From the NCBI GenBank assembly GCA_963801165.1, contig CAWDDT010000009.1, positions 256,001-320,000 on the forward strand: 64,000 nucleotides of DNA. The letters are read 5' to 3'. Source of the stretch: an uncultured bacterium (lineage in GTDB: Bacteria > Actinomycetota > Acidimicrobiia > Spongiisociales > UBA5794). Every line of letters begins with the position of its first letter. Position 1 is the stretch's first letter. A program made the position numbers and the translations under genes. Shown piece after piece: positions 5,215 through 7,702 of the stretch. The notes below the pieces were generated by a model. The model saw nothing but the letters and a program-made list of their open reading frames with translations. It was not told the DNA's origin and ran no database searches.

Positions 5215-6039
5215 TCAGTTGAGGCCGCGGCTGTCTTGTTTGAGAGCGGTGTCGACCGAGAGCGCTGAGGCGATGACCAGCGAGCGGAGGGGCTCGTCGA
5301 GCGTGCGGTGGAGTTGGAGGACGTAGTTGTCGGCGGTGGTGAACATGGTCTTGGCCAGGCCTTCCCACGTCTTGGTGATCCTGGCTACCTCGCTGCCGGT
5401 GCGGTCCTGGATACTGAAGTTCCACGCCCGCCAGTTCTCCGCCTTGATGGCTCCCACCGTGGTTCCGCCGGCTTGGAGAGCGAAGTTGATCTTGCCGAAC
5501 ACATTCTGCTGAACGATCGAACCGACGGGGCGCCCGGCGCCGTCGGACACCTCGACCCGTGATTTGACCAGCTTGGCGGGGCGAGTGACGGTGAGGAGGA
5601 CCGACCCGTGCATGTCGACGATCTGGAACTTGTGGGTGAGGAATTGGTCGACGCTGGTGAGGACCCGCAGCGCCTTCTTCGCCGCACTCTGACCGACCTC
5701 GCGGATGGCACCGATCTGGTTGCCGTTCTGGTCGTACACCGCGTACTCAGTATTGACCTCTATCAGCTTGGCCTTCTGGTTGACCACCAGGATCGGCTCG
5801 GTGAGGATCGTGCCACCGCCTGCCGGTGCCCCCGACAGACCGGCCTGCCGGCTCACCTGGTCCTGTACCCTGGCATTGCTCTGCTCCCCCACCGGAACTT
5901 GGGACCCGGCGGTGGCGGAGTCGTTGCGCTCCACGTTGCCGTCCATGACCCGATCGGTCCAGGTGGCGCCGTCCCAGTATCGTTTCTCGTGTCTGCCCGA
6001 TGGATCGGGATACCAGTTGGCTGCGGGTTGCTCGCTCAT
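5215..6039 (-). CDS. DUF2510 + phospholipid scramblase/LURP-one-like protein
   Basis: N-terminal WYPDPSGRHEKRYWDGATWT (DUF2510) followed by a tubby/scramblase-like domain. Start reassigned to ATG 6039 (MSEQP). Confidence 0.8.
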   Translation of the reverse strand: MSEQPAANWYPDPSGRHEKRYWDGATWTDRVMDGNVERNDSATAGSQVPVGEQSNARVQDQVSRQAGLSGAPAGGGTILTEPILVVNQKAKLIEVNTEYAVYDQNGNQIGAIREVGQSAAKKALRVLTSVDQFLTHKFQIVDMHGSVLLTVTRPAKLVKSRVEVSDGAGRPVGSIVQQNVFGKINFALQAGGTTVGAIKAENWRAWNFSIQDRTGSEVARITKTWEGLAKTMFTTADNYVLQLHRTLDEPLRSLVIASALSVDTALKQDSRGLN

Positions 6040-6145
6040 GGCGATGAGGCTACACGCCCGCGGGCCGCACCCGACGGCATCGTGTCGGTGCAGCCCGCGA
6101 ACGGGCGGTAGCGGTCTCGTGGCCCCGATCAGGGTCCCGCAAACA

Positions 6146-6190
6146 TCACTTGCGGTTGCCAATCGGTCCCGTGAGAGAGAACATGTTCAT
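6146..6190 (-). CDS. candidate 14-aa small ORF (MNMFSLTGPIGNRK)
   Basis: AGAAAGGAG RBS 7 nt before the ATG; last of three sORFs with the same RBS core. Confidence 0.4.
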   Translation of the reverse strand: MNMFSLTGPIGNRK

Positions 6191-6248
6191 CTCTGTGCTC
6201 CTTTCTGTTCTTCCCCCGTCGAGGGGGTGTTGTCCTGCCGGCGATAGG

Positions 6249-6392
6249 TCATCGGACCCTGATCGCGGCGACAGCTTCGTTCATGCGCGCAATGTGCCGT
6301 GCGTCGGCGTCCTCGACCCAGCGCGGATTGCGACCGAGATCGACGCCGTGCCGTGCCAGCACGTTGCTGATGCGGGCGATAGGTGTCTGCAC
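6249..6392 (-). CDS. candidate 47-aa small protein (MQTPIARISNVLARHGVDLGRNPRWVEDADARHIARMNEAVAAIRVR)
   Basis: GAAAGGAG RBS before a GTG start; GC-rich third codon positions; corresponds to the 3' part of track ORF 6249..6473. Confidence 0.55.
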   Translation of the reverse strand: MQTPIARISNVLARHGVDLGRNPRWVEDADARHIARMNEAVAAIRVR

Positions 6393-6417
6393 CGTCCCTC
6401 TCCTTTCATGTTGTTGC

Positions 6418-6495
6418 GACGGAAGCTGCCGGGATCTGCAGGCTGCGATGGGCCGTGTATGTGTGCAGGCCACAGGTCCCGGCGGCTTTGCCGTC
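6418..6495 (-). ncRNA. long imperfect RNA hairpin upstream of the 47-aa sORF
   Basis: Nested pairings GACGG/CCGTC, AAGC/GCTT, GCCGGGA/TCCCGGC, CTGTGG/CTGCAG and CTGC/GCAG. Confidence 0.45.
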
Positions 6496-6524
6496 TGTAC
6501 GTACTCGCCGAAGGCGACTACGCG

Positions 6525-6574
6525 TGGAGCGGGGAGGATTCGAACCTCCAGGGAACCCCCAATGGGCCCGCCCC
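6525..6574 (-). ncRNA. tRNA-like mini-structure (acceptor stem + T-arm, no D or anticodon arm)
   Basis: Minus strand reads GGGGCGG-N18-GGAGG TTCGAAT CCTCC-CCGCTCC-A: a 7-bp acceptor stem with a G3.U70 wobble and A discriminator, and a canonical 5-bp T-stem with a TTCGAAT loop. No encoded CCA. Confidence 0.55.
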
Positions 6575-6595
6575 GGGTGTCTGGAGGGGCGGGCC

Positions 6596-6624
6596 AAAGA
6601 AGAAAGCCGCCCCTGGGGCGGCTC
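6596..6624 (-). terminator. intrinsic terminator after the 42-aa sORF
   Basis: GAGCCGCCCC-A-GGGGCGGCTT hairpin followed by TCTTCTTT. Confidence 0.65.
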
Positions 6625-6653
6625 CTCGTGAACGATATGGTGGGTCGACGTCT

Positions 6654-6782
6654 CTAGATAGTCGTCGCCCCGGTGTTCCGAGGAGCCTTGCTGATGACAG
6701 CAGCGCCCGTAGCGCTGCCTCCGCCGCGACGCGGAGACACGAGGTTGCTGTGCCGGACAGCGGTGAAGTTGGTGATCATCAT
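6654..6782 (-). CDS. candidate 42-aa leader peptide (MMITNFTAVRHSNLVSPRRGGGSATGAAVISKAPRNTGATTI)
   Basis: AGAAAGGAGA RBS just before ATG ATG; followed by an intrinsic terminator, an attenuator-like layout. Confidence 0.5.
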   Translation of the reverse strand: MMITNFTAVRHSNLVSPRRGGGSATGAAVISKAPRNTGATTI

Positions 6783-6857
6783 GCGTGTCTCCTTTCTCCT
6801 CGAAACCTGAAACCAAAACGCCGCAACGCCCCCGAAGGGGTGTCACGGCCTGGACGT

Positions 6858-6886
6858 AATCTCGCATACATGTATGCCCGTGTCAA
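6858..6886 (-). promoter_or_regulatory. sigma70-type promoter with a palindromic operator in the spacer
   Basis: TTGACA-17 nt-GAGATT; the spacer holds the perfect 14-bp palindrome GCATACATGTATGC (6864-6877); a C(UUCG)G hairpin follows at 6820-6849. Confidence 0.55.
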
Positions 6887-6940: not shown

Positions 6941-7702
6941 ATGTTGACTTTCGATTCGTACCTCGCCCACTTCGACGCAGACGCCCATTTACTCGCTGCC
7001 GCCGCAGCCAGGGGGCTCGACCCCGATGTGCCCGGGTGCCCCGAGTGGACGGTGCGTGATCTGGTGATTCACACCGCCGACGTGCACTGTCACAAAGCCG
7101 ACATCATCACCGGAGCCTGGATCGACCAGTCGCCGCCGCATCGGGGTCTCCCCGAGGGAGCCGCCCCGCTCGACTGGTACCGGGAGGAGGCGGTCCGTCT
7201 CTACAAGATCCTCGAGAAGGCAGATCCTGCGCTGCCGTCGTACACGTTCGGGCCGGACAAGACCGTCGGGTTCTGGTACCGGCGGATGGCGCAGGAGACC
7301 GTCGTCCACCGCGTCGATGCCGAGCAGGCGCACGGCTACGAGAGCGCCATCGATCCTGAGCTAGCCGTCGACGGGGTCGCCGAGTTGTTCGAGGTGTTCC
7401 TCACCCGTCGCCCCGTCTGGGCTCAGTTCCGTCCCGGCGAGGACGTGATCTGCATCGAGACCGCCGACCAGACCTGGGCGGCGCGGCTCGGGAGGTTCGT
7501 CGGCTCCCGGAAAGGCGTCGACTACGCCGATCGCACCATGATGCTCGAACCGGACGCCGAGCCACAGGCGACGATCGGCGGTGAGCCCGATAGGGTGTTC
7601 CTGTGGATTTGGGGTAGGGCTCCGATCGACGATGTGACAGTCACCGGCGATCCCGGCGTGGTCGAGCGGTTCCGGGCAACGTGCGCCCGGCGTCTGCTCT
7701 AG
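6941..7702 (+). CDS. maleylpyruvate isomerase family mycothiol-dependent enzyme (MDMPI N-terminal domain)
   Basis: VPGCPEWTVRDLVIH and RRMAQETVVHRVDAE motifs; AGGAGG RBS. Confidence 0.85.
   Translation: MLTFDSYLAHFDADAHLLAAAAARGLDPDVPGCPEWTVRDLVIHTADVHCHKADIITGAWIDQSPPHRGLPEGAAPLDWYREEAVRLYKILEKADPALPSYTFGPDKTVGFWYRRMAQETVVHRVDAEQAHGYESAIDPELAVDGVAELFEVFLTRRPVWAQFRPGEDVICIETADQTWAARLGRFVGSRKGVDYADRTMMLEPDAEPQATIGGEPDRVFLWIWGRAPIDDVTVTGDPGVVERFRATCARRLL

Follow-up and report, generated by a model that had tools for sequence, protein, structure and literature searches.

A conserved cassette with attenuator anatomy, a tRNA-like element and a small basic protein in uncultured Acidimicrobiia

Leader-peptide attenuators are textbook switches of amino-acid operons. 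Transfer RNA (tRNA)-like structures embedded in longer RNAs act as processing signals for RNase P and RNase Z in other systems, and MALAT1 mascRNA, MEN-beta menRNA and the plant mitochondrial t-elements are processed by these two enzymes, according to the sections of PMC4919922 that deal with them. Another point of reference is given by the P4 CI and P1 C4 RNAs, which the relevant part of PMC5499578 presents as hairpin-like RNase P substrates without a T loop. The subject of this work is a unit of about 0.8 kb, from about 6886 to about 6062 on the minus strand, in a 64-kb window of the genome of an uncultured bacterium (positions 256,001 to 320,000 of contig CAWDDT010000009.1, assembly GCA_963801165.1). 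Here, in uncultured Acidimicrobiia of the sea and of sediments, the anatomy of an attenuator precedes a mimic of tRNA and a tiny protein that belongs to no known family. The unit is interpreted as a conserved, riboregulated cassette for a small protein, undescribed as far as we found: it had no match in Rfam, Pfam, PHROGs, PADLOC or IMG/VR, and no description of such a cassette was found in the open-access full-text literature. All coordinates are those of the whole window, with the unit read on the minus strand; it extends beyond position 6146, the limit given in a first-pass annotation of this DNA.

The comparison is based on the genome of the window (G000), its genus (g1) and two further genera of the same Acidimicrobiia family (g29 and g10). 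The names given in the public sources place the relatives in uncultured Acidimicrobiia. Thirteen metagenome loci were added, giving 25 g1 sequences, and nine further contig loci were duplicates of loci already in the set. Helix counts refer to 30 sequences (25 from g1 and 5 from g29) and per-pair counts to the 24 distinct g1 sequences. A 730-nucleotide (nt) portion of the locus was found at 65-83% identity in 14/14 genomes of the genus and was unmatched in 26 other genomes searched (15/41 match when G000 is included). Concerning the 5' hairpin, its motif is present in exactly one copy per genome in 18 of the 401 genomes of the order, which are G000, 12/13 genomes of g1 and 5/5 of g29, and was found in none of the other 105 genera. 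Furthermore, R1, a covariance model built for the tRNA-like element, gave one match per genome in 20 of the 133 genomes of the family (G000, 13/14 in g1, 5/5 in g29 and 1/1 in g10), none in 131 genomes from the other 11 families of the order and none in 150 other genomes of the class; among the family genomes it scored no true tRNA at E<=0.001. The conservation of the unit is far beyond chance.

The conserved core is formed by the promoter, the 5' hairpin, the open reading frame (ORF) ORF1 with an internal anti-Shine-Dalgarno (anti-SD) sequence, competing helices and a terminator, the tRNA mimic, hairpin C and ORF2. The order promoter, 5' hairpin, ORF1, terminator, tRNA-like element, hairpin C and ORF2 is common to the three genera. 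Its features in the window are the following:

6886-6881 and 6866-6858, minus strand: promoter read in the sequence, with -35 TTGACA, a 17-nt spacer and a TGc-extended -10 GAGATT (hexamer at 6863-6858)
6849-6820, minus strand: 5'-terminal hairpin GCCGUGAC-A-CCCC-UUCG-GGGG-C-GUUGCGGC
6805-6796, minus strand: segment 1, UUUCGAGGAG, adjoining the Shine-Dalgarno sequence (SD); its partner is segment 2
6796-6785, minus strand: paired stretch of the SD region, GGAGACAC, with the ORF1 SD GAAAGGAG at 6796-6789
6782-6654, minus strand: ORF1, leader peptide of 42 codons
6740-6733, minus strand: anti-SD GUGUCUCC within ORF1, codons 15-17
6687-6676, minus strand: segment 2, GGCUCCUCGGAA (GGCUCCUCG in its pairing with segment 3), near the end of ORF1, able to pair with segment 1 or segment 3
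6628-6620, minus strand: segment 3, CGAGGAGCC, candidate antiterminator 3' arm and 5' foot of the terminator
6625-6596, minus strand: intrinsic terminator called by a terminator scan, with a GC stem, a 3-nt loop and UUUCUUCUUU
6595-6565, minus strand: GC hairpin, the 3' arm of which doubles as the 5' acceptor strand of the tRNA-like element
6574-6525, minus strand: tRNA-like element without anticodon arm, with a 7-bp acceptor, a D-like arm, a 5-nt linker, the T arm GGAGG-UUCGAAU-CCUCC and discriminator A
6495-6418, minus strand: hairpin C (about 80 nt), with the invariant loop CACAUACACGGCCC at 6463-6450
6392-6249, minus strand: ORF2, basic protein of 47 amino acids (aa), GTG start at 6392, SD at 6407-6400

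Every minus-strand element listed in the first-pass annotation, from TTGACA-17-GAGATT through the 14-aa ORF3, is present. The ribosome-binding-site core that it described as common to three small ORFs was found as GAAAGGAG upstream of ORF1, ORF2 and ORF3 (6796-6789, 6407-6400 and 6205-6198). Its claim of a conserved structured unit encoding small proteins is in line with the matches throughout the genus, and a scan of Rfam returned no family at gathering score anywhere in the window.

The promoter is supported by the conservation of its two elements. TTGACA is retained in 24 of the 25 g1 sequences (L025 has TTGACT), in 5/5 g29 sequences and in g10, and the extended -10 (TGn plus nAnnnT) is retained throughout the three genera as seen by eye in the alignments. 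A consensus promoter scan called no site at this position. Transcription is likely to start near A6851/G6850. The CCCC-UUCG-GGGG motif is the tip of a larger 5' hairpin, whose lower stem is invariant in 25/25 g1 sequences and appears in g10 as GCCGUGAA/UUCGCGGC, which is a compensated form.

ORF1 is open in 12/12 g1 loci, where it encodes 36-42 aa with length differences of whole codons, and also in 5/5 g29 loci and in g10 (36-46 codons overall), and it is preceded by its own SD at every locus examined. The peptides of the three genera have almost nothing in common. The ratio of nonsynonymous to synonymous substitution rates (dN/dS), calculated with the 20 of 25 g1 sequences that have exactly 42 codons, is 0.69 versus 0.96 in the +2 frame, and this weak protein constraint fits a leader peptide. 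The terminator lies about 25 nt past the ORF1 stop and is conserved in 30/30 sequences and in g10.

Regarding the helices of the leader, the SD pairs with the anti-SD, 36-47 nt after the ATG, through at least 7 of 8 pairs in 30/30 sequences and 7/8 in g10. Compensated forms of this helix include ACAC/GUGU, ACGC/GCGU, GGGGC/GCCCC and GGAGC/GUUCC, and within g1 99.5% of the alignment cells are paired, with AU in 13 and GC in 11 sequences at one pair. Helix 1:2 (positions 57-66 with 179-188 of alignment A3) has 91.7% of cells paired and shows one G-C to A-U compensation, in three sequences with a C to U change in segment 2 (at this pair, GC 15, AU 3 and other 6). Helix 2:3 presents at least 8 of 9 pairs in 30/30 sequences and 9/9 in g10, its closing pair being G-C in g1 and U-A in g29; 97.2% of its cells are paired within g1 versus 43-64% when the arms are slid. 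The closed state as a whole has 95.8% of cells paired in g1 versus 42-52% when slid, and none of 500 shuffles reaches its covariation score. Moreover, the leader fold is more stable than 200/200 shuffles (z = -3.94); the minimum free energy (MFE) fold includes helix 2:3, and the centroid fold includes helix 1:2, SD:anti-SD and the terminator. Judged from the sequence, the leader has the anatomy of a trp-type attenuator plus an added SD lock, and the attenuation suggested in the first-pass annotation is borne out at this first stage by competing helices, terminator and leader ORF. As a separate observation, the ORF1 stop UAG (6656-6654) is located in the loop of a small hairpin, CGACG...CGUCG (6646-6671), predicted in both the MFE and the centroid folds, and the alignments show that relatives retain it with different stem letters.

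The tRNA-like element, also named in the first-pass annotation, is real. Three covarying helices with compensated changes were found in 30/30 sequences. The acceptor stem of 7 bp keeps at least 6 of its 7 pairs in forms such as GGGGCGG/CCGCUCC, GGGACGG/CCGUUCC, GGAGCGG/CCGUUCC and GGAACGG/CCGUUCC, and is GGGGCGA/UCGUCCC in g10. The D-like arm has 3-4 bp with covarying stems (CCC/GGG, CUC/GAG, UCC/GGA and UCUC/GAGA) and a loop ending in GG. A linker of 2-7 nt takes the place of the anticodon and variable arms in the 30 sequences. The T arm GGAGG-UUCGAAU-CCUCC has compensated variants, the T loop UUCGA is present in 30/30 and the discriminator is A in 24/30. Hence, of the canonical tRNA features, the acceptor stem, the D arm with GG and the T arm with a UUCRA loop are found in 30/30 sequences and the anticodon arm is absent; ARAGORN called no tRNA or transfer-messenger RNA (tmRNA) gene in the window.

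The Rfam tRNA model gave no match to the element even at E<=10, and the best Rfam match, below threshold, was mascRNA-menRNA (RF01684) with 22.7 bits versus a gathering cut-off of 42.5 (E = 0.063). Over 32 positions, the acceptor and T arm differ from the closest tRNA, tRNA-Ala(GGC), at 7, and the acceptor end in G000 is tRNA-Ala-like (G3:U70, A73). G3:U70 is present in only 14 of the 24 distinct g1 sequences, and the pair is A:U or G:U-shifted in g29. In a BLAST search of the genome the longest match was 18-19 nt, corresponding to the T-arm stretch, and the element is not a copy of any genomic tRNA.

Several identities were tried and rejected for this element. A tRNA-Sec scored 16.4 bits versus a cut-off of 47. 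For an unusual tmRNA, RF00023 is above its cut-off only at C4:761564-761917, and none of its listed weaker matches is at the locus. For a remnant of an attachment (att) site, BLAST gave nothing longer than 18-19 nt, and the remaining short RF00023 matches belong to true tRNAs. Outside the window, G000:C9:426578-426614 is a 37-nt copy of the 3' part of a tRNA with the anticodon loop CUUUUAA, located about 18 kb from the full gene (444754-444829, same contig C9) in the same orientation; such a copy and full gene are the usual signature of an integrated element.

Concerning variation in length, an extra hairpin of 20-45 nt is found inside the loop of the GC hairpin in L005, L009-L011, L031, L033 and L034, and an insert of 80-110 nt between hairpin C and the ORF2 SD in L008, L009, L012 and L027. 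Insertions are tolerated at these two places and not in the tRNA-like element.

Hairpin C has 17 predicted pairs, five of them with compensated changes, and its loop is identical in 25/25 g1 sequences. The loop contains CACGGCC, the complement of GGCCGUG at the 5' end of the transcript. The complementarity covers 6-7 nt in g1 (GGCCGUG), 9 nt in 5/5 g29 sequences (GGCCGUGAC) and 6 nt in g10 (GGCCGU), the two partners being invariant and without covariation to test the contact.

ORF2 is arginine-rich and under purifying selection. In the 20 of 25 g1 sequences that passed the filter (the five left out include frameshifted and contig-truncated ones) its dN/dS is 0.30; the +1 frame is closed in 20/20 and the +2 frame gives 1.76. 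It is intact in 10/12 g1 loci. The frameshifts in the other two, L003 and L007, could be due to assembly error or loss, and ORF2 is intact in L023, a metagenome relative close to L007. A total of 38 public homologues of 46-76 aa were found, every one labelled hypothetical. The first-pass annotation had considered the three ORFs too short for standard gene callers, which does not apply to ORF2, already predicted in public records as a 47-aa hypothetical protein. An exhaustive profile search against 1.84 billion representatives gave 14 matches at E<=0.001, eleven of them small (36-95 aa), and the three matches to long proteins are taken as spurious. The positional homologues have 49-55 aa in g29 and 48 aa in g10. 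The comparison of the g1 and g29 profiles is weak (4.8% probability), and homology among the three genera is proposed because of the position and the common R-I...G...R-x-P-R pattern.

Searches with ORF2 in Pfam, NCBIfam and PDB sequences gave nothing meaningful, and no relatives were found in PHROG or PADLOC; PHROGs gave one weak match of unknown function (E = 0.0047). AlphaFold predicts a hairpin of two helices with modest confidence (predicted local distance difference test, pLDDT, of 69). Foldseek found no match to it in the PDB at E<=0.001, and the best score in the ESM Atlas, 0.86, is at noise level.

RNA evidence consists of assembled contigs from RNA libraries, which indicate presence only, without ends, strand or level. 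Contigs from four salt-marsh metatranscriptome runs lie on 6116-6508, from hairpin C to past a mini-ORF that follows ORF3, and one run also covers 6976-7100. They do not reach ORF1, the terminator or the tRNA-like element, and are uninformative on absence. Contigs of three runs are one base short at 6207-6208, between the hairpin that follows ORF2 and the ORF3 SD, probably because of a strain difference.

Taken together, these features suggest a ribosome-sensed attenuator in the first 255 nt that gates read-through into the tRNA-like RNA and ORF2, a reading that is favoured here with middling confidence. It is supported by a translated-type leader ORF with its own SD directly upstream of an intrinsic terminator, and by the presence of helices 1:2, 2:3 and 3:4, with pairing of 91.7-99.5% versus 42-64% when slid and with both states represented in the folds. 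With no ribosome on ORF1, the SD would pair with the anti-SD and segment 1 with segment 2, the 3:4 terminator would form and a short RNA would be produced. A ribosome translating ORF1 to its stop would cover segment 2 during the synthesis of the terminator, again giving the short RNA. If ribosomes initiate but lag or stall before segment 2, helix 2:3 could pair, the terminator would be disabled and RNA polymerase would read on. ORF1 has no recognisable regulatory codon run that would point to the signal. The tRNA mimic could then be excised from the read-through RNA by RNase P and a 3' tRNA-processing activity; by analogy with the systems mentioned above, the tRNA-like part is probably there as a signal for processing by RNase P/Z. 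Excision would detach the leader from the mRNA that encodes the 47-aa basic protein, ahead of which hairpin C would stand with a loop able to pair with the 5' end of the transcript.

Several points weigh against this attenuator. No regulatory codon run was found in the ORF1 leader peptides of the three genera, and between the anti-SD and segment 2 these peptides have no residue in common. Helix 1:2 is broken at one pair, the same that alternates between G-C and A-U, in 6 of the 24 distinct sequences. Helix 2:3 has no pair changed on both sides within g1, its sole compensation being one intergenus pair. The sequences are close kin from three genera, and covariation counts overstate the number of independent events. 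Folded by itself, the tRNA-like stretch does not exceed shuffled sequences in stability (z = +0.39), and its MFE structure differs from the tRNA-like fold. In g1 the GC hairpin, with 97% of its cells paired, competes for the acceptor strand, and the two pairings, both 97% kept, are indistinguishable there; the acceptor helix is taken as the conserved pairing because g29, by eye, has no matching 5' arm for the GC hairpin. Finally, ORF2 may have a separate promoter.

Apart from the core, the unit carries features of narrower distribution, together with a probable end:

6877-6864, minus strand: palindrome GCATACATGTATGC in the promoter spacer, read in the sequence
6227-6213, minus strand: hairpin CCCCC-UCGAC-GGGGG between ORF2 and ORF3
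6190-6146, minus strand: ORF3, 14 codons, SD at 6205-6198, genus-specific
6146-6129, minus strand: ORF4, mini-ORF of 6 codons that overlaps the ORF3 stop (UGAUG) and ends in Pro-UGA
6096-6062, minus strand: closing hairpin GCACC...GGUGC, probable end of the unit

The palindrome, ORF3 and ORF4 are lineage-specific. The full 14 nt of the palindrome are found only in L001 and L022, and 12 nt in L007 and L023 (by eye); it is degraded in the rest of g1 and absent from g29 and g10, and about four perfect 14-nt palindromes are expected by chance per 64 kb (own arithmetic). Most aligned relatives also have a hairpin after ORF2, its stem differing in sequence; by eye, L012 and L026 are ambiguous. In g1 the ORF3 products have 14-19 aa and are weakly alike; by eye there is none in g29, and g10 has an unrelated ORF of about 45 aa at this place. 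A frame of 5-7 codons ending in CCN-TGA corresponds to ORF4 in most of 19 aligned sequences (L025 looks divergent by eye) and is kept only within g1. The closing hairpin is retained in L005 and L009, both of which lack the scramblase-like gene that is often found downstream.

The neighbours of the unit differ. Upstream, a divergent gene of the DinB/MDMPI family is present in 10/12 g1 loci, and downstream a DUF2510-scramblase-like gene in 7/12, whereas in g29 the unit lies between a flavodoxin-like ORF and an ORF for a membrane protein. Because the same core order occurs with different neighbours across three genera, the unit is considered autonomous and not the leader of one particular gene. 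In the window, the sequence TAGCCT lies exactly 7 nt upstream of the ATG of the scramblase-like gene (ATG at 6039, minus strand; 6037-6052), and by eye a TANNNT hexamer is at the same place in the relatives that have this gene. A TANNNT hexamer 7 nt before the ATG is the pattern of leaderless mRNAs in Actinobacteria, and its occurrence suggests that the scramblase-like gene has its own promoter and a leaderless mRNA. This hexamer, and the fact that loci lacking the gene keep ORF3, ORF4 and, in L005 and L009, the closing hairpin, speak against the part of the unit past ORF2 being a leader of that gene.

These results change part of the picture given in the first-pass annotation. The operator that was thought to gate the promoter is the palindrome, which is not conserved beyond close kin in g1. 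From the cascade of three small ORFs, ORF1 and ORF2 are common to the three genera, and ORF3, like ORF4, is genus-specific. The proposal of a phage immunity-like module does not agree with a single-copy, chromosomal unit that has a conserved place in g1, different neighbours between genera and no match in IMG/VR. Overall, the attenuator anatomy, the tRNA-like element and the conserved unit remain from that interpretation, and the operator, the three-ORF cascade and the phage immunity are set aside. A phage or defence origin was rejected, with no 5' motif and no ORF2 relative in IMG/VR, no PADLOC family and one weak PHROGs family. The layout of a type III toxin-antitoxin system (RNA, terminator, protein) was also set aside, as ORF2 has only 47 aa and no PADLOC match, no search for tandem repeats having been made. 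For ORF1, the precursor of a ribosomally synthesized and post-translationally modified peptide (RiPP) was set aside in view of the dN/dS of 0.69 and of neighbouring genes that are not common to the genera.

Other explanations of the unit have to be weighed against the attenuator. It is possible, if unlikely, that the terminated RNA of about 255 nt (5' hairpin, ORF1 and terminator) is the main product and works as a dual-function regulator. Its GGCCGUG(AC) would pair with the loop of hairpin C, in cis or in trans, and set the stability or translation of the ORF2 mRNA, with a logic that may be likened to P4 CI or to attenuator-derived small RNAs (sRNAs) such as rnTrpL. No bases of the unit are better conserved than the 5' stretch and the loop, which are complementary in the three genera (6-7, 9 and 6 nt) though the rest of hairpin C has diverged; the terminator is strong, and the part of PMC6614838 on this subject offers a precedent for a trans-acting sRNA derived from an attenuator. 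However, the two partners are nearly invariant and provide no covariation, nine g1 sequences with AGCCGUG lose one pair, and a very stable local hairpin uses the 5' stretch as its own 5' arm. Moreover, an extended target of the loop was not found anywhere else in the genome: the only occurrence of the 14-mer complement is the other strand of the loop's own DNA, and at 0-1 mismatch no trans target was found except this same DNA.

The excised tRNA mimic could instead be a functional, stable small RNA bound by the tRNA machinery (CCA-adding enzyme, a synthetase, EF-Tu, the ribosome or a tRNA-targeting enzyme as candidate binders), with ORF2 as its partner and with the attenuator coupling the production of both to the state of translation. 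The tertiary features typical of the tRNA elbow are all present in 30/30 sequences (D-like loop ending in GG, T loop UUCGA), the acceptor end in G000 is closest to tRNA-Ala, ORF2 is an arginine-rich protein under purifying selection, and the tRNA-like element and ORF2 are always found together. This possibility is nevertheless judged quite unlikely: with G3:U70 in only 14/24 g1 sequences the alanine identity is not conserved, the discriminator is A in just 24/30, CCA is not encoded, and ORF2 has no detectable family or fold match. A related and rather improbable idea is that of a mini-tRNA without anticodon arm, made only when translation of the leader's test ORF falters, which together with ORF2 would act on the translation apparatus. 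It may, for example, act as decoy or adaptor, either at the ribosome or at an enzyme that modifies or charges tRNAs, and by analogy may represent a bacterial counterpart of the mascRNA-type mimics with its own translation-sensing switch. Lastly, the locus could be a decaying relic without present function, in which the ORFs arose by chance. It might, for example, be what remains of a degenerate tRNA operon, or the 3' part of a tRNA gene displaced when an element integrated. Partial tRNA copies are a frequent trace of mobile elements, G000 has one such pair at another place, and conservation is missing for the palindrome, ORF3 and ORF4. Nevertheless, the element matches no genomic tRNA beyond the 18-nt T-arm stretch and lacks the anticodon arm rather than the 5' half, its three helices keep their pairing through compensated changes across three genera, ORF2 has a dN/dS of 0.30, the unit is single-copy with a conserved internal order, and viral contigs gave no match. 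A relic is already disfavoured and is regarded as very improbable.

If the ribosome-sensed attenuator is correct, the unit would be a case from bacteria in which a tRNA-like element marks a built-in site of RNA processing or is itself a product, and it would offer a testable system in which the state of translation is sensed with no obvious amino acid as the signal. It would also give a first context to a 47-residue family that is now labelled only "hypothetical". The narrow range, restricted to three genera, limits the reach of these ideas.

In comparison with known systems, the tRNA-like domain of tmRNA also has an acceptor and a T arm without anticodon arm, and the acceptor end in G000 shares with it the tRNA-Ala-like G3:U70 and A73. 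Unlike tmRNA, the element has no tag reading frame or pseudoknots between the acceptor strands, and its G3:U70 is not conserved; furthermore, G000 has a normal tmRNA elsewhere (RF00023 at C4:761564-761917).

The first-pass annotation had likened the locus to the P4 CI and P1 C4 operons. The likeness with P4 CI and P1/P7 C4 lies in complementary boxes within one transcript (here the loop of hairpin C and the 5' end), in a candidate RNase P substrate and in downstream small genes controlled by termination, which is proposed here. Rfam presumably holds a C4 family, and in the window no immunity RNA of the P4 CI/C4 kind was found at Rfam gathering score or among 13 weak matches. The comparison is not supported by the element itself, which has a canonical T loop in contrast to those RNAs as they are presented in that part of PMC5499578, and the unit is not in a prophage or plasmid.

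What the unit has in common with MALAT1 mascRNA, MEN-beta menRNA and the plant mitochondrial t-elements is a small tRNA mimic, with acceptor and T arm, that lies within a longer RNA where cutting would separate two functional parts. Those RNAs are eukaryotic or organellar, whereas this element is bacterial, has no anticodon-like stem and is located after an attenuator and before a protein gene. It falls outside the mascRNA-menRNA family by score (22.7 versus 42.5 bits), and its processing is putative.

The closest likeness in the first stage is with the leader-peptide attenuators of the trp, his and thr operons, which also have a short ORF led by an SD, helices 1:2, 2:3 and 3:4, and a terminator right after the ORF. 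As with rnTrpL, described in the corresponding part of PMC6614838, the liberated leader RNA could have a second role here. This leader differs from those attenuators in having no run of codons for a single amino acid, in the location of segment 1 at the SD and not inside the ORF, and in the extra SD:anti-SD helix. What would be controlled here is not a biosynthetic operon but a tRNA-like RNA and a 47-aa protein.

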